Source: Flavobacteriales bacterium (GTDB lineage Bacteria > Bacteroidota > Bacteroidia > Flavobacteriales_D > CAJJDF01). From it: DNA of 64,000 nt. The stretch spans positions 25,457 through 89,456 of the forward strand of contig JABAYJ010000003.1 of NCBI GenBank assembly GCA_018609055.1. Reading direction: 5' to 3'. The position numbers were made by a program, and so were the translations under genes. The notes beneath the pieces are model-generated. The model saw only the letters and a program-made list of their open reading frames with translations, was not told the origin of the DNA and did not search any database. Position 1 is the first letter of the stretch, and every line of letters starts with the position of its first letter. Positions 5,137-56,663 of this stretch are shown one piece after another.

Positions 5137-5868
5137 ATGGCAAAAAAATACCAAGTAGATTACTATTCGTTTTTAGGATTTATTCTGTTTTCAATAATCA
5201 TTGTTTTTATCTGGAGAACCTACTATGGATATTACATTCTGTACCCTTTTACCATAATGGGAACTTGGTTTCACGAAATGGGACACGGAATTATGTCCAT
5301 TATTGTTGGTGGTAAATTTCAGTATCTCGAAATATTCGAAAATGGTTCTGGATTGGCTCATAGTAGTTATTACGATTCAGATTTTTATTTCAATAAAAAT
5401 CTAGCGTTAGCAATGGTTACTACTGCAGGTTTATTTGGCCCACCAGTGGTTGGTTCTATTCTTATTTTGATGAGCAAGAATTTTAAGAAATCAAAAATCA
5501 TACTTTACATTCTTTCTGTTTCTATGCTTATTTCGGTAGCCATTTGGGTGCGAACTACAGTAGGAGTTGTAGTAATACTTTCGTTAGGTGCGCTTTTACT
5601 TTTTATTTCCGTAAAAGCAAAGCCAATGATACATCAGTTTGTAGTACAAATAATTGGAGTAATAGCCGTAGTAAATACTTTTAGACAAATTGGTTATTTG
5701 TACATAGAAAAAGTAACTGTTGGCGGACTAGAAGAAAGTTTTTCTGATACAGGTTCTATTGCAAATAGGTTGGGAATGACTTATTACTTTTGGGGAACTC
5801 TTATTTTAATATTGAGTTTTGTGATGTTGGTTTACAGTTTGTATTTAAGGAATAAAACCAGAGTTTAA
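5137..5868 (+). CDS. Polytopic membrane protein with HExxH motif (M50-like metallopeptidase family)
   Basis: Six or more hydrophobic segments. HEMGHG motif at the end of TM2 (WFHEMGHGIMSIIVGG). Confidence 0.6.
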   Translation: MAKKYQVDYYSFLGFILFSIIIVFIWRTYYGYYILYPFTIMGTWFHEMGHGIMSIIVGGKFQYLEIFENGSGLAHSSYYDSDFYFNKNLALAMVTTAGLFGPPVVGSILILMSKNFKKSKIILYILSVSMLISVAIWVRTTVGVVVILSLGALLLFISVKAKPMIHQFVVQIIGVIAVVNTFRQIGYLYIEKVTVGGLEESFSDTGSIANRLGMTYYFWGTLILILSFVMLVYSLYLRNKTRV

Positions 5869-6545
5869 TCCTCAACATCAACAAATTTATACCCAACACC
5901 TTTCACTGTTTTGATATAATCGTCTCCTATTTTTTCTCTTAACTTTCTTATGTGAACGTCAATTGTTCTGTCACCAACAACAATGTCGTCTCCCCAAACA
6001 GAAGCGAAAATTTTCTCACGAGTAAACACATTGTCTGGTTTTGACATTAACAAAGCCAACAATTCAAATTCTTTTTTAGGTAAGGATATCTCAGTATCTC
6101 TTTGGACGACAATATACTTTTCCCTATCAATTCTCATTGTAGCAGTTTCCTCTATAAGTTGATCCTCAACAGTTCCCCTCCTAAGCAATCCTTTAATCTT
6201 ACTAAAAAGAACTTTTGGTTTAATAGGCTTAGTAATGTAGTCGTCTGCACCAGCATCAAATCCTGCAATTTGCGAATAATCTTCACTTCTGGCAGTTAAA
6301 AAAGCAATGATTGTATTGGCAAGTAATTTATTTTTTCTGATTTCACCACATGCTTCAATTCCATCCATTTCTGGCATCATAACATCCATAATAATAAGTT
6401 CGGGCAAAAACTCATTGGCTACTTCAATAGCTTTTTCCCCATTGAGAGCAGTTTTTACTTCATACCCTTCTTTAGTAAGGTTATATTCTAGTAAATCTAG
6501 AATATCCTCATCATCATCTACTAATAAAATCTTGCTTGACTTCAT
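5865..6545 (-). CDS. OmpR/PhoB-family response regulator (receiver + winged-helix DNA-binding domain)
   Basis: Receiver motifs (LLVDDDEDIL, IMDVMMPEMDG, DDYITKPIKPK). C-terminal trans_reg_C (LPKKEFELLALL...DRTIDVHIRKLREKI...GVGYKF). No histidine kinase gene is adjacent. Confidence 0.9.
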   Translation of the reverse strand: MKSSKILLVDDDEDILDLLEYNLTKEGYEVKTALNGEKAIEVANEFLPELIIMDVMMPEMDGIEACGEIRKNKLLANTIIAFLTARSEDYSQIAGFDAGADDYITKPIKPKVLFSKIKGLLRRGTVEDQLIEETATMRIDREKYIVVQRDTEISLPKKEFELLALLMSKPDNVFTREKIFASVWGDDIVVGDRTIDVHIRKLREKIGDDYIKTVKGVGYKFVDVED

Positions 6546-6633
6546 ATTAATTTAATAATTGTTTAACAAATAAAAGGCTTTTTTTTGTTCTCTACTCACT
6601 TAAAATTAAAAGCTACATAAACATAATGGTGGC

Positions 6634-6656
6634 TTAACATTGAGTTAATATTAAAC
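6634..6656 (+). promoter_or_regulatory. Candidate response-regulator box: TTAACATT-gag-TTAATATT-aAAC (8-3-8 direct repeat, 11-bp period)
   Basis: It lies in the divergent region between the response regulator and the TonB receptor. A near-identical copy is at 12299-12321. It overlaps the expected -33 position of a TTCCTTTG -7-like box at 6660-6667. Confidence 0.45.
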
Positions 6657-6686
6657 CAATTCCTTTGTTACAAATAAAAAAAGAAA

Positions 6687-9452
6687 ATGAAAAAATTTAT
6701 ATTCTTAGCATTATTACTAGTTTCCTCTTATGGGAATGGACAGTTTAAAATTAACGGAACCGTAACAGGTAACACAGATGATTTAATTGAGCCAGTAGCC
6801 TTTGCAAATATATTAATAAAAGGAACTTCTATTGGTGCTTCTACTGATTTTGACGGAAAATTCACATTAAATATAGACAAAGGAACATATGTGTTAGTAA
6901 TCTCTTCAATAGGGCTTGATAAGCAAGAAATAACAGTACAAATAGTAGATTCTAACGTTACTGTAGCAGTAGAACTTACTTCCTCATCCACTTATATTGG
7001 AGTAGTAAATATAGTAGGTAGAGAAGTTGGAGGAACTAAAACTATGGATATCTCCGAAGTAAAAAACTCTGATGGTGTTGATGCTGTAATAGGTGAAGAA
7101 AAAATGAAAGAAACAGGAGTTTCTGATGCTGGTGGAGCTGCAAAAAAGGTAGTAGGTTTATCAGTAGTAGGTTCAGGAAATGTATATGTAAGAGGTTTAG
7201 GAGACCGATACAATTCGGCATATTTAAATGGGCTACCAATTGCATCTCCAGACCCAGACAAAAAAGTAATTCCATTGGATTTATTCCCTACAAATGTCAT
7301 AAAATCTATGACAGTGAAAAAGGCTTACATGCCAAATTTAGAAGGAGATTTTTCTGGAGGGGCAATGGATATTTCTACCAAAGTATACCCGGACGAAAAA
7401 GTGCTTAAAATTTCATTGGGAACAGGGTTAAACTCTCAATCTATTGGAAGACAAAGAATGACTTATGAAGGAGGAGGATTAGATTACCTAGGTTTTGATG
7501 ATGGAATAAGAGCTATTCCAGATGCAATTACTAATGAAGATGCTTATCGTTCTACCGAAGGGAGTAAATCCTTATTTGCTAATAATTTAAATCCAGTACA
7601 TAAGTCTACTTTACCAAATACAAGTTTTGGTTTATTTGCGGGTAATGTATTTGAATTAGATAACGATAAAAACTCTAAAGTTGGTTTTTTGGTTTCATTA
7701 AACCACTCTAACAGCAATGAATATGCATTTGGAAAATATAGAGTAATCAATACACAAGAAGATATACAAATTGATTATGACTTTGAAGATTACACTACTT
7801 CTACTTCTACTTCTGCATTAGCAAACATTGGTTTTGATATTGATGAAAACAACCTTATTTCTTATAATTTTTTGTATGTAAATACCTCTAGCGATCAAGT
7901 AAAAGAAGTATACGGATCACACTGGGATTATGCTAGAAACGTATACGCTAGAAGATTCACTTTTAAGCAAAACAACTTAATGAATAACCAAATTACTGGT
8001 TCTCATTTCTTAATGGATAAAAACAAATTAAGAATAAACTGGTCGGCAGCACTTAACAATGCAAACAGTACTGAACCAGACAGAAGACAATTAGTCTATT
8101 TCTTTGATGATAAAGAAGATCCCGAAAACTATACGATAAATGCTACCGATAGAATTGAAAACCACCGTTTTTTCTCTTTCTTATCTGAAAGACAATTCAC
8201 TGCCAAAGCTGAAGCAACATACGTATTCAAATACAATACAGATAATGTAGAGGATGGAGCAAAATTAGCTTTTACAACAGGAGGTATGATTAAGAGAAAA
8301 ACAAGAGATTTTGATTTTACTCAATTTGTATATGACATGAATTTGTCAGATAATTCATTAGATTTTCTTAATCCAGACTCATACATTAATCCTACAACTC
8401 ACGAAGCAGGAGAGTTTAGTATACAAGAGGCCCTGAACCCTGCAAGTGCATATTTGGCAACACAAAGCATTAATTCTGTATACGGAATGTTAGATTATAA
8501 CATTACTCCTAAAATAGAAATGATTGCAGGAGCAAGAGTAGAAATGAGTGACCAAAAAATAACTTGTTTGGATCAAACTCAACCAGATTTTAAACGAATT
8601 AATCGAATTGTATCTACAGACATTTTACCGTCTTTAATATTAAAGTACCAACCTAATGACACTAATATTGTAAGATTTTCGGCAAGTAAAACAATTACAA
8701 GACCTGGATTTAAAGAAGTAGCGCCATTTCAATATACCGAAGTATTTGCAGGTGCAACTACAGTAGGAAATCCAGAATTAATAAATGGAGAAAACTACAA
8801 CTTTGATGTTAGGTACGAAAGATACCCAAGATTTGGTGAGTTTATGGCGGTAGGAGTATTCTACAAAAAACTAGTAAATCCTATTGAAAAAACAATGGAA
8901 GTTGCTACCAACCAATTACAATCTTTCCGTAATGCTGGAAATGCAACTGTAGCAGGAATAGAATTTGAATACACTAGTTCACTTTCTTTCTTAACTAAAT
9001 CAGATTCTTCGTTTCTTAGGTTTGTTTCTTTAGGAGTTAACGGAACCTATTTATACTCTAAAGTAACTTTTGACCCAGAAGCTAACTTAGCTCAAACAAA
9101 TAGCGAAAGAGCTTTACAAGGAGCTTCTCCATACTTAATTAATCTTGATTTAGCTTACTCTAGAACATTGAAAGAAAACTTAAAAGTAAACTTTAGTATC
9201 TCTTATAATGTATTTGGAAGAAGGATTTATAACGTAGGAATTTATGGCCTTGGTGATGTTTACGAATTACCTGTAAACTCACTTAATTTAGTTGCTGGTG
9301 TAGAACTAGAACACTTTAATTTTGGATTTAGAGTAAACAACTTACTAAATCAAGACATCCGATTTGAGCAAGAAACTCCAAATGAGCCAATCATCATTAA
9401 CTCTGCAAGAAGAGGGGTATTTACATCATTAAGTGTTGGATACAAATTTTAA
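6687..9452 (+). CDS. TonB-dependent outer-membrane receptor with N-terminal carboxypeptidase-regulatory-like domain
   Basis: Signal peptide. CarboxypepD_reg-like start (FKINGTVTG...ANILIKGTSIGASTDFDGKFTL). Plug region (VYVRGLGDRYNSAYLNGLPIASPDP). C-terminal beta-barrel ending in aromatic F (SVGYKF). Confidence 0.9.
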   Translation: MKKFIFLALLLVSSYGNGQFKINGTVTGNTDDLIEPVAFANILIKGTSIGASTDFDGKFTLNIDKGTYVLVISSIGLDKQEITVQIVDSNVTVAVELTSSSTYIGVVNIVGREVGGTKTMDISEVKNSDGVDAVIGEEKMKETGVSDAGGAAKKVVGLSVVGSGNVYVRGLGDRYNSAYLNGLPIASPDPDKKVIPLDLFPTNVIKSMTVKKAYMPNLEGDFSGGAMDISTKVYPDEKVLKISLGTGLNSQSIGRQRMTYEGGGLDYLGFDDGIRAIPDAITNEDAYRSTEGSKSLFANNLNPVHKSTLPNTSFGLFAGNVFELDNDKNSKVGFLVSLNHSNSNEYAFGKYRVINTQEDIQIDYDFEDYTTSTSTSALANIGFDIDENNLISYNFLYVNTSSDQVKEVYGSHWDYARNVYARRFTFKQNNLMNNQITGSHFLMDKNKLRINWSAALNNANSTEPDRRQLVYFFDDKEDPENYTINATDRIENHRFFSFLSERQFTAKAEATYVFKYNTDNVEDGAKLAFTTGGMIKRKTRDFDFTQFVYDMNLSDNSLDFLNPDSYINPTTHEAGEFSIQEALNPASAYLATQSINSVYGMLDYNITPKIEMIAGARVEMSDQKITCLDQTQPDFKRINRIVSTDILPSLILKYQPNDTNIVRFSASKTITRPGFKEVAPFQYTEVFAGATTVGNPELINGENYNFDVRYERYPRFGEFMAVGVFYKKLVNPIEKTMEVATNQLQSFRNAGNATVAGIEFEYTSSLSFLTKSDSSFLRFVSLGVNGTYLYSKVTFDPEANLAQTNSERALQGASPYLINLDLAYSRTLKENLKVNFSISYNVFGRRIYNVGIYGLGDVYELPVNSLNLVAGVELEHFNFGFRVNNLLNQDIRFEQETPNEPIIINSARRGVFTSLSVGYKF

Positions 9453-9477
9453 TTAAAACTTAAACCATTTATATAAA

Positions 9478-9509
9478 GGCATTCTTACTTTGGTAAGGAT
9501 GCCTTTTTT
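9478..9509 (+). terminator. Rho-independent terminator
   Basis: GGCATTCTTAC / GTAAGGATGCC stem (one G-U pair) with a 4-nt loop, then TTTTTT. Confidence 0.7.
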
Positions 9510-9618
9510 AATTTAATGTTAACTCCTAAGGTCATATTCTTAAAATATCCTTAACGCAGTAAATATATTCAAGTAAGATTCATTGTTGATTTTTGTATCA
9601 AATAAAAAAACAAAAAAA

Positions 9619-10923
9619 ATGAACACAACAATCAAAAATTTTGGAATGCTGATTTTAACAGCAGGTCTGCTAACAACAACTGCCTGTAAAAAAGAAACTG
9701 GCTGTACTGATCCTAATGCAAGAAACTATAACCCTGATGCGGTTGAAGATGATAACAGTTGTGAAACTGTTCCTTACACAGTTACTACAACTGATATTAA
9801 TGGAGTTTCTTACGAAAGAGTTTCTGGAACATTTGATGAAAACTATACATTTACTAGCAGTAAAAAATGGTTATTGAGTGGAGGTATTTTTGTTGATGCA
9901 AACGCTACATTAACAATACAAGCTGGAACAGAAATATATGCAGCTGATGATCAAACTACTCCGTTTTTATCCATATTAAGAGGAGGAAAAATTAATGCAG
10001 TAGGAACAGCAACTAGCCCTATTGTAATGACTACAATTAAATCTGTTACTGGAACACCAGCTGCAGGTGATTGGGGAGGAATTATAATCAATGGGAATGC
10101 ACAAATAAATAACGGAACTGAAGCTGAAGGAGAAGGAGGAACTGGAAAATATGGTGGTTCTAATGATAACGATAACTCAGGTACTATAAAATATGTGAGA
10201 GTTGAATACGCAGGAAAGTTATTAGGAACAGACAATGAGCTAAACGGATTTTCTTTTAATGGAGTAGGAAGCGGAACAACTGTCGAATATATTCAGGCAT
10301 ACAGAGGTGCAGATGACGGAATCGAATTTTTTGGAGGAACAGTATCGGTAAAATATGCAGTGTCTACAGGAAATAAAGATGACTCATTTGATTGGACATA
10401 CGGATGGAGAGGAAACGGACAGTTTTGGGTTGTAAACCAAGAAGTTGGAGGTGGAGACAGAGGAATTGAAGCAGATAACAATGGAAACGATAATACGTTA
10501 TCTCCTTATTCTAACCCTACTATTACTAACGTAACTTTAATAGGAATTGACGATGGAGATGCTTCAAACACTGGAATGAGATTAAGAGAAGGAACAAAAG
10601 GAACAATCCATAATGCAATTGTTACAGGTTTTCCAAGTTCAGGAGTAAGAGTTTCTGATGCACAAACTACGACTAACATGACAAACGGTGAGTTGGCACT
10701 AAAAAACTCAAATGTGTTCACAAACGGAACTAACTTTAGAGATTGTGCAACTTTCTCTGGAGATATGACTAATTCAACTACAATTTTAACCTTAACGGGG
10801 TATGTTGGAACATCAACTACAAATGCAGCTGACCCAACTACTTTAGGTTCTTGGTTTTCTCCTGGAACATTTGTTGGGGCGGTAGAATCAACTAATGATT
10901 GGACTGCAGGATGGACTAAATAA
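9619..10923 (+). CDS. Surface lipoprotein of unknown function (Gly/Asn/Thr-rich, beta-helix-like repeats)
   Basis: ATG at 9619 gives MNTTIKNFGMLILTAGLLTTTACKK (lipobox). Short Cys-bounded motif CTDPNARNYNPDAVEDDNSC. Repetitive G-x-G/N-rich strands (DDGIEFFGGTVSV, DDSFDWTYGW, GIEADNNGNDN). Confidence 0.7.
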   Translation: MNTTIKNFGMLILTAGLLTTTACKKETGCTDPNARNYNPDAVEDDNSCETVPYTVTTTDINGVSYERVSGTFDENYTFTSSKKWLLSGGIFVDANATLTIQAGTEIYAADDQTTPFLSILRGGKINAVGTATSPIVMTTIKSVTGTPAAGDWGGIIINGNAQINNGTEAEGEGGTGKYGGSNDNDNSGTIKYVRVEYAGKLLGTDNELNGFSFNGVGSGTTVEYIQAYRGADDGIEFFGGTVSVKYAVSTGNKDDSFDWTYGWRGNGQFWVVNQEVGGGDRGIEADNNGNDNTLSPYSNPTITNVTLIGIDDGDASNTGMRLREGTKGTIHNAIVTGFPSSGVRVSDAQTTTNMTNGELALKNSNVFTNGTNFRDCATFSGDMTNSTTILTLTGYVGTSTTNAADPTTLGSWFSPGTFVGAVESTNDWTAGWTK

Positions 10924-10947
10924 ACCCAACCTAATTAAACCTAAAAA

Positions 10948-10981
10948 GGGTAGCGAAAATTAATTTCGCTACCCTTTTTTA
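10948..10981. terminator. Bidirectional rho-independent terminator
   Basis: GGGTAGCGAAA / TTTCGCTACCC perfect 11-bp stem, flanked by an A-run upstream and a T-run downstream. It sits between convergent genes. Confidence 0.8.
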
Positions 10982-10997
10982 ATTGTTAAAAATCCGT

Positions 10998-12206
10998 TTA
11001 GAAATGCAAATCTACTTGCATTCTATAAAATAATTTATCGTCTTTATTAAGTACATCTCTATAGCTTAAGTCAGCTTGAAATTTAAGCTTATGTCCTACC
11101 ACATATTTAGATAATCCAATAGTATACTCGTTTTCTTTGTTAGATGAAGTTGGCGACATGTAAGTAAATCGTGCAGAAGGTTCCCAGTTATTTTTTAGTA
11201 AATAACCAGCCTGTAAATTTACTGCTTGGCCTGTATAGTAAGCGCCAACCTGATTGTTATTTACATCAAAAACTCTGTTGTTTCCACCTCCTACTTCTCT
11301 AAGTGCATACTCGCCCATTAATGAGAAACTTCTGTATTTAAACATGAAGTCAGCAAAAAAGGTGTTTAATGTTTTAAGTTGAGTTGGAGCCACTTCAAGG
11401 AAATTTCCTAACTGCCCTCTATCTCTACCTGCTCTGTCGTTTATATCGTAAGCAAATCCAAATCCAAGTTTTGGTTTCTTCTCTCTTTTTAAGTCTCCTC
11501 CTTTGTAATCTCCTCCAGATTTAAACTTACCAAACGGCAACATTTCTAATCTAAAAGTATAGTCGTATCCACCAATGTTTCCACTAGTAATGTTTCTTCC
11601 TTCTCCTTGCGAAAAAGAAAAGATCTGCTCCATATAAAATTGTTTTCCAAACTTAGATTTATGTCTTAATTGGATTCCCATATCACGGTCAATGTTAAAC
11701 CTGCTATTCAATCTGCTTCGGTCTACCATTTGCATATTTGCAGACGAAACTACACGCTCTCTATTACCAGGAAGTTTAGTCTGTCCAGCCCACAACCAAA
11801 AATTTTTGGAGAAATTCCATTTAACTACAGCATCCAACATCAATCGAGATGCATTGCTATATTGTGGTAAATCACCACCACTCATATCTCTATTTGTGAG
11901 AGCTAGCTCTATTTTATATTGAACTTTAGGATTAAAAGCATATCCTTTAAATTTTAAACGAGATCTTCTCAATAAAAAATTAGAAGTGTGGTTGGATACA
12001 TTTCCAAAGTCATCTCCTACAACATCCCAGTTGTTGGTATATAAAGCTTGGAATCTCATTCCTACATTCATAGTAAATGAAGAATCTTTTGCAATAAAAT
12101 CAATTCCTTTTCCAAAACTATTAGTTTTAATCTGTGCTTGAGTCGGGTTAAATGCTGTGCATAAATAACATATAACTATAATCCCTGTCGTTTTCTTAAA
12201 ATTCAT
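10998..12206 (-). CDS. Outer-membrane porin, phosphate-selective porin O/P-like family
   Basis: Signal peptide ending AQ. MRFQALY...LLRRSRLKFKGYAF motif typical of Porin_O_P-like Bacteroidota porins. Alternating beta-strand pattern and terminal aromatic (VDLHF). Confidence 0.7.
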   Translation of the reverse strand: MNFKKTTGIIVICYLCTAFNPTQAQIKTNSFGKGIDFIAKDSSFTMNVGMRFQALYTNNWDVVGDDFGNVSNHTSNFLLRRSRLKFKGYAFNPKVQYKIELALTNRDMSGGDLPQYSNASRLMLDAVVKWNFSKNFWLWAGQTKLPGNRERVVSSANMQMVDRSRLNSRFNIDRDMGIQLRHKSKFGKQFYMEQIFSFSQGEGRNITSGNIGGYDYTFRLEMLPFGKFKSGGDYKGGDLKREKKPKLGFGFAYDINDRAGRDRGQLGNFLEVAPTQLKTLNTFFADFMFKYRSFSLMGEYALREVGGGNNRVFDVNNNQVGAYYTGQAVNLQAGYLLKNNWEPSARFTYMSPTSSNKENEYTIGLSKYVVGHKLKFQADLSYRDVLNKDDKLFYRMQVDLHF

Positions 12207-12298
12207 ATTAATAAATGGTTAATAAAAGTGTCCAAAACTAATTAAAATTAACATAGATTTTACGTTCCTTTGAGAAATGACACTTTGTTAATCTACAT

Positions 12299-12321
12299 TT
12301 AACATTAATTTAATATTGAAC
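12299..12321 (+). promoter_or_regulatory. Candidate response-regulator box: TTAACATT-aat-TTAATATT-gAAC
   Basis: Both 8-mers and the trailing AAC are identical to the box at 6634-6656. A weaker 8-3-8 copy (TTAACATA-gat-TTTACGTT) is at 12248-12266, followed by the same TTCCTTTG as at 6660. Confidence 0.45.
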
Positions 12322-12346
12322 TCCTGAAGGTTCGAAACATTACAAT

Positions 12347-12354
12347 TACTTTTG
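12347..12354 (+). promoter_or_regulatory. Bacteroidota-type -7 promoter box (TAnnTTTG)
   Basis: TACTTTTG lies 24 nt upstream of the ATG at 12378. Confidence 0.4.
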
Positions 12355-12377
12355 AAAAAAAGTATAATAAACTACTT

Positions 12378-14540
12378 ATGAAAAATCTAACTTTATTATT
12401 TTCATTCCTATTCACATTTGGTTTCTCGCTATTAGCGCAATCATCTGACAGTATTTTTAATGATTCTTTAGTGCAAGAGTCTGCCGAAGAGTTTGTTCCG
12501 GCTGCTGATATTTTACATAATATTTTTGCTAAGGAAAAAGAAGGTTCTGCTGATATTAGCTGGCTTATTGATTATGATGCAATGCCTAAATTAGAAAGTG
12601 CAGGGTACACAATCATCATTAAGTACAACACCAAAATTGGTGCAAAAAGAGATAAGGCAGGATTCAAAAATTCTGAATGGACAAAGGTTCATGACATTCC
12701 TCTTTCTTCTACTCATTTTAAATTGAAAAACTTAGCTGGTGGAGAAAAGTATGTATATAAAGTTGGAATTGAAAAGGGGGAAGAGCAGGTTTTTTCAGGT
12801 AAAATGAAATTTGAAACTGAGCGTCCTTGGGGATTGTTTAGAGTTTTAGTTCTTATTGGTGCTTTAGGAATGTTTATCTATGGAATGAAAGTGATGAGTG
12901 AAGGTTTGCAACAAGCTGCTGGATCTAGATTAAGAAAAATGCTTTCTTCTATTACTTCTAACAGAGTGAAAGGAGTATTAACTGGATTTGGTATCACTTC
13001 AATTGTACAGTCTTCTTCTGTAACTACTGTAATGACTGTAAGTTTTGTAAATGCAGGATTATTAACTCTTATGCAATCAGCAGGAGTAATGATGGGAGCA
13101 AACATTGGAACAACAATTACTGCTTGGTTAATTAACTTATTTGGATTTAAGGTAAGTATGGCAAATTATGCCTTAGTTATTATCGCAATTGGAGCACCAT
13201 TCTTGTTTTTTGGAAAGTCAAAGTTAAAAGCTTGGGCTGCAGCAATCATTGGATTTGCCTTATTATTTATGGGGTTAGGTGAATTAAAAGGTGCAGTACC
13301 TGGACTAGATGCTGATTCTCCTTTAGTTCAGTTCTTTGCCGAATACAACACTGGAAGTTTCTTAAGTATATTAATGTTTGTAGGATTAGGAACAATTGTA
13401 ACTGTGGTGATTCAATCATCATCAGCAGCAATGGCGTTAACAATGACACTAGTAGCAGCAGGAGTTATTCCTTTTGAGGTTGCAGCAGCAATGGTATTAG
13501 GTGAAAACATAGGAACAACTATAACAGCAGAGTTAGCTTCTTTAATTGGAAACGTACACGCGAAACGTTCTGCAAGAATTCACTCCATGTTTAATTTAAT
13601 TGGAGTGTTCTGGGCAATTTTATTAATGCCTTTTTTAATTGATGGTATTGTTTGGTTCATGGAATATATTGGCGCAGGAAACCCTATTCCAGAATATGCA
13701 GCAGATGGAAGTATCATAAAGAAAGATTCTTACAATACAGGAATTGCTATCTTCCACACAACATTTAACTTAGTGAACGTATTATTATTAATTGGTTTTG
13801 TACCTCAATTGGTAAGATTAGCTGAAAGAACAGTAAAATCTAAAGGAGAAGAAGACGAAGAATTCCACTTAGAGTTTATTAGTGCAGGAATGATGTCTAC
13901 TCCAGATTTATCTATTTCTGAAGCGAAAAAAGAAATGTTGAAATTTGGTAACATAGCTCAAAAAATGAACGGATACGTTTCAAGTTTGTTAGTTGAAAAA
14001 GACAATAAAAAAATCGCTAAACTTCTTAAAAAAGTAAAAAAATATGAGGAGATAACTGATAGAATAGAATTAGAAATTGCAGATTATTTAGCAAAAGTTT
14101 CTCAAGGAGAAATGAGTAATGAGACTTCGGTTAGAATTAGAGGAATGCTAAGTATGATTGGTGATTTAGAAAGAATTGGTGACATCTATTACCAAATTTC
14201 TAAAACTATCGAATCTAAACACGAAAAGAAAGTTTGGTTCAATCCTCAGTTTAGAGATTTATTAGTTGAAATGGTAAATACCGTAGACGAAGCAATGGTA
14301 ATTATGAACGAAAACTTAGCTGCAAACTACAGTACAGTAAAAATTGATGCTGCATTGTCTAAAGAAAAAGACATTAATGATTTAAGAGATAAAATTAGAA
14401 AGAAGCACTTAACTGAAATAGGTTCTTCTGAGTACGATACGGTAACGGCAACTTTCTACAGCAACATTTTCCACTCTTTCGAAAAAGTAGGAGATCATAT
14501 AATAAATGTAACTGAAGGTCTTGTTGGAAACATGGACTAA
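12378..14540 (+). CDS. Na+/phosphate cotransporter family protein (NptA/YjbB-like, PhoU-like C-terminal repeats) with extra N-terminal secreted domain
   Basis: Core motifs are present: GMKVMSEGLQ, QSSSVTTVM, GANIGTTITAW, second repeat QSSSAAMALT and GENIGTTITA. The C-terminus is helical and PhoU-like. Residues 1-149 are a signal peptide plus a beta-rich extension. Confidence 0.88.
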   Translation: MKNLTLLFSFLFTFGFSLLAQSSDSIFNDSLVQESAEEFVPAADILHNIFAKEKEGSADISWLIDYDAMPKLESAGYTIIIKYNTKIGAKRDKAGFKNSEWTKVHDIPLSSTHFKLKNLAGGEKYVYKVGIEKGEEQVFSGKMKFETERPWGLFRVLVLIGALGMFIYGMKVMSEGLQQAAGSRLRKMLSSITSNRVKGVLTGFGITSIVQSSSVTTVMTVSFVNAGLLTLMQSAGVMMGANIGTTITAWLINLFGFKVSMANYALVIIAIGAPFLFFGKSKLKAWAAAIIGFALLFMGLGELKGAVPGLDADSPLVQFFAEYNTGSFLSILMFVGLGTIVTVVIQSSSAAMALTMTLVAAGVIPFEVAAAMVLGENIGTTITAELASLIGNVHAKRSARIHSMFNLIGVFWAILLMPFLIDGIVWFMEYIGAGNPIPEYAADGSIIKKDSYNTGIAIFHTTFNLVNVLLLIGFVPQLVRLAERTVKSKGEEDEEFHLEFISAGMMSTPDLSISEAKKEMLKFGNIAQKMNGYVSSLLVEKDNKKIAKLLKKVKKYEEITDRIELEIADYLAKVSQGEMSNETSVRIRGMLSMIGDLERIGDIYYQISKTIESKHEKKVWFNPQFRDLLVEMVNTVDEAMVIMNENLAANYSTVKIDAALSKEKDINDLRDKIRKKHLTEIGSSEYDTVTATFYSNIFHSFEKVGDHIINVTEGLVGNMD

Positions 14541-55226: not shown

Positions 55227-56663
55227 TCACTTAGGAAACTTCATAAAAAACGAAGTCCCAATATTTACTTTACTCTCAAAGTAAATAGATCCCCCATGAT
55301 TTTTAAGGATATTTTTTACAATAGCTAATCCCAATCCACTTCCTGATGATTTAGTTGTGAAATTAGGTGTAAAGATGTTTTCATATTGTGAAGGGTCGAT
55401 TCCTTTTCCATTGTCTTTTACCTCCACAAAATAATGGCTTTCATCTTCAGTCAGTATCACTTGAATCACTCCTACTCTTCCTTCTGGGATAGATTGCGCA
55501 GAGTTTTTTAATAAATTATTAAACACTCTTATCAATTGACTATCGTCTCCTTTAATTATAGCTGTTTCAATTCCATTCAGCTCCTTAGCTACTTTTATTT
55601 CTTTGTCAAATGTTCCTACAGCATCTCTCAATATTATTCTTAAATCTACTGGAGCCAAAGAGGTTGTGGGCATTTTAGCAAAACTTGCAAACTCATTTGC
55701 AATTTCACTTAAAGCATCAATTTGCGTAATCATTTTTTGCGAAAAACGAGTCATTTTATGTTTAAACTCTGGGTCCTCTGGCTTTAGTGATTGCTCTAAA
55801 TATTGCACATTCAACTTCATAGGTGTTAAAGGATTCTTAATCTCATGAGCAACTTGTTTTGCCATTTCTCTCCAAGCAATTTCTCTTTCTGATTCTGCTA
55901 ATAAATTGGCACTTTGCTCCAATTCATCTACCATAGTATTGTACCTATGTACTAGAACTCCTATTTCATCATTGTTTTTCCAAGAAATTTTTTCATTCTT
56001 TTTATTAAATGAAACATTCTTCATTTTATCACCAATTAAACTCAATGAACGAGTAATGTTTTTAGACAAAAAGAATGCGAAAATTCCTGCTCCAATTAAT
56101 AGGGCTATATATAGCTCTATAAGAGTTTTATAAAATTTATTAGTCTCAATGCTGTTGGTAGAAAAATCATAATCTGGTACATTCAATATCCCAATATTCT
56201 CTCCTTTCCTATTTTTTAAAAAAGAATAAGTCGATAACTTATTTTGATCTTTTTTAAGAATATAAAAGGAATCTAGAGACGCGTATATCTCATTAAAAAT
56301 ATAGCTCGGTATACTGTCATCAGGATTTAATTCTTGATCTAGGCTAAGTAAAATTTCTCCATCAGTATTATAAATCTTCAGCTCCATTTCATTTTCCTTG
56401 GAGAGTTCTTCAATTTTTTCGTAAAACTCTCTAGGTACTGAGTTTAAGTCTTTCTCTATTTCATATTTATCAGTAAAAAACTTGATAGAGTTTGCCACCC
56501 TTTTTTCTTTTCTTTCTAATCTAGAAAGATGGTATTTTTCGTTTTGATTTTTGAAAAAATTTGCTGTAACTAATGCAATCACCAAGGAAGAAATTACAAC
56601 CAATGCAAGCATAGCGATATAAATTCGCTTTGATAATCCTATATTAAAAGAGGGTCTTTTCAT
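55227..56663 (-). CDS. Sensor histidine kinase (2 TM, HAMP, HisKA, HATPase_c); no cognate regulator adjacent
   Basis: H-box AHEIKNPLTPM, N-box NLLKNSAQS, and G-boxes DNGKGI / GSGLGLAI. Confidence 0.9.
   Translation of the reverse strand: MKRPSFNIGLSKRIYIAMLALVVISSLVIALVTANFFKNQNEKYHLSRLERKEKRVANSIKFFTDKYEIEKDLNSVPREFYEKIEELSKENEMELKIYNTDGEILLSLDQELNPDDSIPSYIFNEIYASLDSFYILKKDQNKLSTYSFLKNRKGENIGILNVPDYDFSTNSIETNKFYKTLIELYIALLIGAGIFAFFLSKNITRSLSLIGDKMKNVSFNKKNEKISWKNNDEIGVLVHRYNTMVDELEQSANLLAESEREIAWREMAKQVAHEIKNPLTPMKLNVQYLEQSLKPEDPEFKHKMTRFSQKMITQIDALSEIANEFASFAKMPTTSLAPVDLRIILRDAVGTFDKEIKVAKELNGIETAIIKGDDSQLIRVFNNLLKNSAQSIPEGRVGVIQVILTEDESHYFVEVKDNGKGIDPSQYENIFTPNFTTKSSGSGLGLAIVKNILKNHGGSIYFESKVNIGTSFFMKFPK

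Follow-up and report, generated by a model that had tools for sequence, protein, structure and literature searches.

What regulator, answering to what signal, would read a short direct repeat that lies where the gene of an OmpR-family response regulator (RR) and the gene of a TonB-dependent transporter (TBDT) diverge? The question is raised by a 64,000-nucleotide stretch of DNA from a Flavobacteriales bacterium (contig JABAYJ010000003.1, positions 25,457 to 89,456; hereafter the window), in which an earlier reading of the letters alone, the original prediction, had picked out two 8-mers with one mismatch and an 11-bp period at 6634-6656 as the kind of site used by OmpR/PhoB-type dimers. The sequence is exactly as it was described, and the analysis supports that reading in every part open to test; the geometry matches that of PhoB and SphR boxes, which are 8-3-8 direct repeats with an 11-bp period (PMC1906773, PMC4415409). 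We consider it highly likely that this is a TTAAC-type Pho box, a predicted site at which the phosphorylated PhoB-like RR encoded beside it (5865-6545) would activate phosphate-scavenging genes.

Two copies of the box in the window

The element occurs at two sites in the window, box 1 and box 2 (Table 1), both built from the same pair of 8-mers, TTAACATT and TTAATATT, which differ from each other at one position inside each site. Box 1 lies between the PhoB-like regulator and TBDT genes, and the TBDT start codon (ATG 6687) stands 35 nt past its second 8-mer. Box 2 lies between the genes of a phosphate-selective porin (OprO/P) and of a Na+/inorganic phosphate (Pi) cotransporter fused to PhoU domains; the original prediction had reported the same architecture at 12299, and the same pair of 8-mers is indeed found there (TTAACATT at 12299-12306, TTAATATT at 12310-12317). 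The second 8-mer is directly followed by aAAC (6653-6656) at box 1 and by gAAC at box 2. Both sites have the layout of a Pho box, namely direct repeats of 8 bp with a freely varying 3-bp linker and an 11-bp period.

Several measures show that the two sites depart from chance. A pattern of 19 specified bases matches twice in the window, with no further match at up to three mismatches and a mean of 0.26 matches in shuffled sequence. A first-order Markov model of the 4.65 kb of intergenic DNA in the window (28% GC) was run 300 times, and the two exact copies observed compare with 0 in these 300 simulations; the 59 kb of coding DNA in the window hold no match at one mismatch or fewer. The original prediction had named a like frequency in coding or in random AT-rich intergenic DNA as counting against it, and no such frequency is seen. 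A weight matrix trained solely on sites from other genomes, with which 127,964 window positions were scored, placed boxes 1 and 2 at ranks one and two with 20.5 bits each, and the best unrelated position reached 11.8 bits. With the same matrix the units of box 2, which include a third one on its upstream side, scored 5.4, 10.8 and 9.7 bits from 12288 onward. Other matches of at most 12 bits (61784, 45622, 57845, 4073, 1357 and others) are isolated and mostly inside open reading frames (ORFs), and we took them as chance. A structured cis-regulatory RNA, such as a riboswitch or leader, was also considered and rejected: Rfam gave no match at E ≤1 overlapping either box in the region searched (5800-12900), and the boxes lie 5' of the likely transcription start sites (TSSs).

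Spacing between the box and the promoter

Flavobacterial sigma-A promoters carry a -7 box, TAnnTTTG, at -12 to -5 (PMC9723704). Such an element, or one resembling it, lies downstream of both boxes (Table 1). At site 1 there is no -33 TTTG, and the box occupies that place. The distance from repeat 2 to TTTG is exactly 11 nt in six of six TBDT promoters (the window and the orthologous loci L001, L003, L004, L005 and L006, described below). If the conserved TTTG is taken as the -7 element, TBDT transcription would start at about 6672 and box 1 would span about -38 to -20. The original prediction had placed the box in the -33 position, and this invariant gap, together with the phasing seen in matches from other Bacteroidota (below), agrees with that placement.

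At the Na/Pi transporter promoter the box stands further from the -7 element. The gap to TTTG is 33 nt in the window, L003 and L007 and 34 nt in L004, and 33 nt equals 11 nt plus two helical turns. The transporter TSS would accordingly fall at about 12359 by the position of its -7 box, with the box 2 array at about -71 to -42. In L003 the corresponding promoter has four in-register units, the last of which, TTAACACT, lies 11 nt from TTTG.

Conservation in orthologous loci

Orthologous TBDT loci were retrieved over a range of 83 to 39% protein identity. The divergent order of RR and TBDT genes, with the beta-helix lipoprotein gene following the TBDT gene, is kept in L001-L007. Across the six TBDT promoters named above (83-55% identity) the element is conserved as TTAACATT-N3-TTAATAT(T/G), while neither the 3-bp spacer (gag, ggg, aac, aag, aag, gac) nor the flanking sequence is kept. 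The original prediction had included the trailing AAC in the box; this part did not hold up, for the positions after repeat 2 read aaac, aaac, aaac, aaaa, atta and taaa in the six promoters, and because the NAAC tail is not conserved we dropped it from the element.

The conservation extends beyond these six promoters. In the GC-rich relatives L008 and L009, degenerate TTAAC/TAAC units stand in 11-bp register before a conserved CCTTTG. Within the loci of about 16.8 kb, matches with at most two mismatches are almost only intergenic and lie upstream of the TBDT, beta-helix, Na/Pi and second RR genes.

Occurrence of the core across bacterial genomes

We scanned the exact 16-base core against one genome per species in 185,579 species, and obtained at least 120 matches. 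The counts that follow are for the matches listed, a sample of the total: 63 come from Bacteroidota, six from Ignavibacteria/Chlorobi (the two together are called the FCB group here) and 51 from other taxa. Fifty-eight of the 63 Bacteroidota matches are intergenic, with one fully inside an ORF, and so are all six from Ignavibacteria/Chlorobi; of the 51 matches outside the FCB group, 33 are intergenic and 16 are inside ORFs.

Among the matches listed, the spacing to the -7 box follows the helical period. A TTTG stands at exactly 11, 22 or 33 nt from the box in 20 of 69 FCB matches versus 0 of 51 others (Fisher p = 6e-6); the FCB counts at these three offsets are 6, 6 and 8, versus 0.42 per out-of-phase offset, and no TTTG phasing at 11, 22 or 33 nt was seen on the opposite side of the box. 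Many of the matches listed are arrays of three to five units with an 11-bp period. Register positions that the search pattern had left free give the consensus (G/T)TAA(C/T)AT(T/A); among 28 such units, 26 have a pyrimidine (C or T) at position 5.

The original prediction had proposed asking whether such sites are enriched upstream of Pi genes, and both the window and the scan answer in the affirmative: box 2 lies at the OprO/P-Na/Pi pair, and the genes downstream of the FCB matches listed include 12 for TBDT-cluster proteins, four for PHO4-family phosphate transporters and three for PstS-like proteins (PBP_like_2), with one each for Porin_O_P, PhoU_div, a Metallophos phosphoesterase, an Exo_endo_phos nuclease/phosphatase and a PAP2 phosphatase. 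Two beta-helix lipoproteins and several proteins that are unannotated or secreted by the type IX secretion system (T9SS) are also encoded there, and the match in Flavobacterium hibernum, also among those listed, lies upstream of genes for a PhoB-like RR and then a kinase. In the control set from other taxa, one of 10 downstream genes was phosphate-related, namely that for the alkaline phosphatase of the Firmicute Pelosinus (L064).

Upstream of that gene the exact core lies within three in-register repeats, and this array is probably a genuine PhoP box. Because it precedes an alkaline phosphatase gene, TTAAC-type Pho boxes appear to be common to Firmicutes, cyanobacteria and Bacteroidota. Besides L064, the identical 16-base core also occurs outside Bacteroidota in L013, L043 and L046. 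A further promoter class was observed in L037, L040, L051, L108 (Tenacibaculum) and L125 (Croceitalea), in which the exact box stands 22 nt from a CCTTTGC -7 box ahead of a different TBDT family, and no recognisable third repeat lies between the box and the -7 element (units such as AAGGTAGA).

The adjacent response regulator

An OmpR-family regulator adjoining the box on the other strand had been part of the original prediction, and domain searches bear this out, with Response_reg and Trans_reg_C at 5865-6545. The best NCBIfam matches of this RR are two PhoB models, TIGR02154 (210.7 bits) and the Bacteroidetes PhoB model NF053854 (201.1 bits). Its closest solved structure over the full length is RegX3, and the DNA-binding domain is nearest, among named PDB entries, to the E. 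coli PhoB effector domain and RegX3. It is the sole OmpR-family gene in the 64-kb window. It is the protein predicted to bind the box.

The 3' neighbour of the RR gene is a convergent Peptidase_M50B gene (5137-5868, plus strand) and not a kinase gene, a layout kept in L003, L004 and L006. An operon of RR and histidine kinase (HK) is retained in the more distant L007 and in F. hibernum (L093); the L007 RR is 65% identical to that of the window and has a HisKA/HATPase kinase directly downstream. A search of the 64-kb window for a PhoR-like kinase returned a single match, at 55230-55871 (minus strand), which at 26% identity is too weak to call PhoR.

In the sequence around both sites we saw no proximal box in the right orientation to serve the promoter of the RR gene itself. 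The distance from the -7-like box of the RR gene, CAAATAAA (plus-strand letters, 6566-6573), to box 1 is 63, 63, 63, 63, 52 and 40 nt in the window, L001 and L003-L006. These steps of about 11 nt hint at autoregulation, in which box 1, read in the opposite orientation, might double as a site for the divergent RR promoter, a pattern with too few independent values to interpret.

The surrounding gene cluster

If the box is a Pho box, the array of sites would explain the region from 5.8 to 14.5 kb as one compact, co-regulated Pho regulon, that is, a phosphate-uptake island (Table 1). The Na/Pi transporter exceeds the cut-off of NCBIfam TIGR00704. For the lipoprotein, the mechanical ORF call (TTG 9583, 446 aa) is too long, and the start is ATG 9619 with the signal ...LLTTTAC (MNTTIKNFGMLILTAGLLTTTAC); a Pfam search of the window protein gave no match, and the Beta_helix_4 assignment comes from the precomputed annotation of its orthologues.

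Table 1. Predicted regulatory sites and genes of the cluster, in window coordinates
Feature	Position	Strand	Sequence or domains	Basis	Remark
PhoB-like OmpR-family RR	5865-6545	-	Response_reg + Trans_reg_C	Pfam	candidate box-binding protein
Pho box 1 (predicted)	6634-6652	+	TTAACATT (6634-6641), gag, TTAATATT (6645-6652)	sequence	
-7-like sigma-A box, TBDT promoter	6660-6667	+	TTCCTTTG		TTTG starts 11 nt after repeat 2
TBDT	6687-9452	+	CarbopepD_reg_2 + Plug	Pfam	predicted target of box 1
Candidate weak Pho-box array	9540-9580	+	TTAAAATA-tcc-TTAACGCA-gta-AATATATT-caa-GTAAGATT	sequence, four-unit score	
Beta-helix outer-membrane lipoprotein	9619-10923	+		translation	orthologues carry PF28492 Beta_helix_4
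Phosphate-selective porin (OprO/P)	10998-12206	-	PF07396 Porin_O_P	Pfam	divergent from Na/Pi transporter gene
Pho box 2 (predicted) and third upstream unit	12288-12317	+	TTAATCTA-cat-TTAACATT-aat-TTAATATT	sequence, weight matrix	
-7 box, Na/Pi transporter promoter	12347-12354	+	TACTTTTG		perfect TAnnTTTG
Na+/Pi cotransporter fused to PhoU domains	12378-14540	+	Na_Pi_cotrans + PhoU	Pfam	predicted target of box 2

The TBDT stop codon is directly followed, at 9476-9509, by a near-perfect hairpin (AAGGCATTCTTAC ... GTAAGGATGCCTT) with a T-run. This looks like an intrinsic terminator, so that the lipoprotein gene is likely to have a promoter of its own. Ahead of that gene lies the array at 9540-9580, whose last unit ends 11 nt before TTTG 9592-9595 and which ranks third among window loci by in-register four-unit score; it is a probable weak Pho-box array, less certain than boxes 1 and 2. 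A promoter-proximal unit with this 11-nt spacing also stands in L003 (GTAATATT) and L006 (GTAACACA). A lone minus-strand TTAACATT abuts the T-run after the TBDT gene in the window, L001 and L003. We did not count the window copy, at 9522 past the terminator, as a site: its pair score is only 8.0 bits, its second half is the terminator T-run, and its orientation varies among relatives (minus in L001; plus in L004 and L006). A better candidate than this copy is the array on the plus strand (9540-9580).

At 12248-12272, upstream of box 2, the porin/Na-Pi intergenic region holds a further, weaker box-like pair, TTAACATA-gat-TTTACGTT (13.4 bits), and a second TTCCTTTG (12265-12272), which the pair overlaps by two bases. 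The pair is kept in L003, and its 2-nt gap to TTTG breaks the 11-nt rule; a second promoter would be one conceivable role. The island itself varies among relatives. In L004 (9940-16766) it is expanded, with three Beta_helix_4 paralogues, a Na/Pi transporter and a second TBDT in a row after the first TBDT, and box-like sites stand at 9822 and 12719. In L006 (11342-12602), genes for an LTD-domain protein and for a Phytase-like/SdiA-regulated-domain protein are inserted between those of the lipoprotein and the porin, which suggests that hydrolases of organophosphate (phytate or nucleic acid) join the island.

Proposed mechanism and alternative explanations

On the Pho-box interpretation, a phosphorylated PhoB-type RR would bind as a head-to-tail dimer, with one winged-helix domain on each 8-bp unit of consensus (T/G)TAA(C/T)AT(T/A); since units repeat every 11 bp, or one helical turn, they would all face the same side of the DNA. 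The RR bound in the -33 place of the TBDT promoter would recruit sigma-A and RNA polymerase in a class-II-like manner and so switch on the TBDT under phosphate limitation. At the Na/Pi-PhoU promoter, the box would act together with its weaker third unit from two turns further upstream on the same helix face, and from one to three turns further upstream the activator may rely on further, weaker units or on contacts upstream. The weaker in-register array ahead of the beta-helix lipoprotein gene would complete the Pho regulon island. What the analysis shows is the sequence itself, its departure from chance, its conservation, its phasing and its association with genes; binding by this particular RR, activation as opposed to repression, phosphate as the signal and the TSS positions are inferred.

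Several observations weigh against this interpretation. The RR scores below the equivalog cut-offs of both PhoB models (210.7 versus 296.2 bits, and 201.1 versus 270 bits), and at the locus checked, no histidine kinase or PhoR gene adjoins it in this lineage, so that its role as Pho master regulator is a prediction. The -7-like box of site 1, TTCCTTTG, has TT where the consensus has TA, although its TTTG is kept in all orthologues. Between box 2 and its promoter, the register positions 12321 and 12332 score -14.9 and -8.4 bits and are not repeats, and because they are not recognisable, activation from about -50 would need a contact unlike that of site 1. In our reading of the intergenic sequence, the porin gene on the divergent side lacks a proximal box in the right orientation. 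In the phosphate-responsive cluster of Flavobacterium johnsoniae (see below), the porin Fjoh_0542 was not induced (PMC8115612).

We weighed three other explanations. The box could be the operator of a local OmpR-family regulator that serves only this TBDT, lipoprotein and transporter island and responds to another signal, for example organophosphate or a metal. The sub-threshold PhoB scores and the lack of a neighbouring PhoR fit such a regulator, as do the confinement of all sites in the 64-kb window to one 8-kb cluster and the presence in L007 of two paralogous RRs in the neighbourhood with a box near each. We nevertheless think it unlikely, since in other Bacteroidota the identical core precedes scattered Pho genes (PstS-like, PHO4, PhoU_div, porin O/P, phosphoesterases and a phoB-HK pair, among the matches listed) and since, of all NCBIfam RR families, the two that fit the window RR best are PhoB models. 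Alternatively, the regulator at site 1 might be a repressor that occludes RNA polymerase at -33, so that expression of the TBDT would require an inactive regulator. Proteins of the OmpR/PhoB family can repress at some promoters, and box 1 overlaps core promoter space (about -38 to -20). Such a promoter, however, offers no -33 TTTG to an unaided polymerase, its strict 11-nt spacing to the -7 element mirrors that of PhoB-activated promoters in which the box replaces -35 (PMC1906773), and the boxes of site 2, at -60 to -42, cannot occlude the polymerase; moreover, the F. johnsoniae TBDT and lipoprotein of the same architecture and neighbourhood, and also phoB, are induced on Pi depletion (PMC8115612). 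Repression is therefore a quite improbable account of the site.

The third explanation does without a dedicated regulator: the box would be an AT-rich repeat that arose by chance, or a generic promoter feature such as a nucleoid-protein binding site, an UP-like element or the site of an alternative sigma factor. It is already disfavoured, and we give it hardly any credence. A/T-rich 8-mers are common in intergenic DNA of 28% GC, and among the at least 120 matches listed, 51 are in unrelated taxa, 16 of these inside ORFs. Yet none of the 300 composition-matched intergenic simulations gave two exact copies; the 8-mers are kept while the spacer varies; tandem arrays of two to five units follow a strict 11-bp period; and the association is specifically with phosphate genes, versus one in 10 in controls, with no Rfam match at either site.

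We return, then, to a Pho box bound by the PhoB-like RR, and the data permit a broader proposal, which we advance tentatively and judge about as apt to fail as to hold, if not slightly more so. A Pho-box and promoter grammar not yet published may hold for the whole Bacteroidota/Ignavibacteria-Chlorobi lineage, in which TTAAYATT-N3-TTAAYATT stands upstream of the -7 TTTG at a distance of 11 nt or of 11 + n x 11 nt; TBDT and beta-helix-lipoprotein systems would then be under direct PhoB control, and in the streamlined marine flavobacterial lineage PhoB would be an orphan whose kinase gene has moved or been replaced. Were this lineage-wide grammar true, it would show a PhoB-type activator substituting for the -33 element of unusual sigma-A promoters.

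Bacteroidota have a major part in the recycling of organic phosphorus, whether in the ocean, in soil or in the gut. If the box and its spacing rule were validated, Pho regulons could be predicted from genomes and metagenome-assembled genomes; TBDTs, beta-helix lipoproteins and T9SS-secreted proteins of unknown function could be flagged as components of phosphate scavenging; and Bacteroidota genetics would gain promoter parts that respond to phosphate. Conceptually, the element varies a classic mechanism in a way that was to be expected and involves no new one. It is useful for regulon prediction in Bacteroidota but would not surprise a specialist.

Comparison with known phosphate regulons

The closest described counterpart of the island is the Pi-responsive 'PhoBR operon'/PUSIV cluster of F. 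johnsoniae, Fjoh_0541-0549 (Lidbury et al. 2021), which encodes OprP, PhoR, PhoB, a TBDT and the FII lipoprotein and is strongly induced by Pi depletion (PMC8115612); under that condition, the log2 fold change was 8 for the TBDT Fjoh_0545 and 9.9 for the FII lipoprotein Fjoh_0546 (PMC8115612). The window shares with it an OprP porin, PhoB, a divergent CarbopepD_reg + Plug TBDT and a beta-helix lipoprotein, a likeness by domain architecture and gene order only. By this architecture and synteny, the window lipoprotein would be the counterpart of the Pi-induced FII. Unlike in F. johnsoniae, PhoR is not adjacent in the window, and a Na/Pi-PhoU transporter is part of the window cluster. The F. johnsoniae Pho-regulon papers, including PMC8115612, define no Pho box or other regulatory cis-element. 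More widely, we found no definition of a Bacteroidota Pho box in the full-text literature searched, a result that leaves subscription journals and regulon databases outside its scope and is not proof of novelty.

In E. coli the Pho box takes the place of the -35 element and stands 10 bp before the -10 element (PMC1906773). The flavobacterial element resembles it in its direct repeats of about 8 bp with a 3-bp linker and in the fixed short distance to a downstream promoter element (PMC1906773, PMC4415409). The likeness extends to the further boxes that stand upstream in helical phase, to a regulon of Pi uptake and scavenging, and to an OmpR/PhoB winged-helix dimer as the binding protein, which for the flavobacterial element is a prediction. 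The two differ in that the unit is TTAA(C/T)ATT here versus CTGTCAT/CTGTACTA in E. coli, so that the enterobacterial consensus (CTGTCAT-N4-CTGTCAT) is not matched; the promoter partner is the Bacteroidota -7 TAnnTTTG here versus the sigma-70 -10 hexamer, and the RR here is only PhoB-like by score.

The PhoP box of Bacillus subtilis consists of TT(A/T/C)ACA repeats about 11 bp apart, and PhoP promoters typically need four of them. Our element has the same TTAACA core and 11-bp phasing, and differs from it in phylum and promoter type. The cyanobacterial SphR box (CTTAACCT, 8 bp with a 3-bp linker) has a TTAAC core and an 8+3 architecture almost the same as that described here, and it occurs in tandem arrays upstream of pst, sphX, phoA and nucH (PMC1906773). 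SphR is reported to require three repeats or more, at positions that vary from -23 to -400 relative to the promoter, whereas at the TBDT promoter two units would suffice and their spacing to the -7 box is fixed, and the 3' half of the unit is CCT in SphR boxes versus ATT here.

On function and architecture, as read from its sequence, the element belongs with the E. coli Pho box, and in sequence class with the TTAAC-type boxes of cyanobacteria and Firmicutes, while the fixed 11-nt coupling to the Bacteroidota -7 box appears to be a lineage-specific feature. We regard it as a new and well-supported case of a classic type of regulatory element, and its consensus and spacing rule may be the first to be set out explicitly for the phylum.

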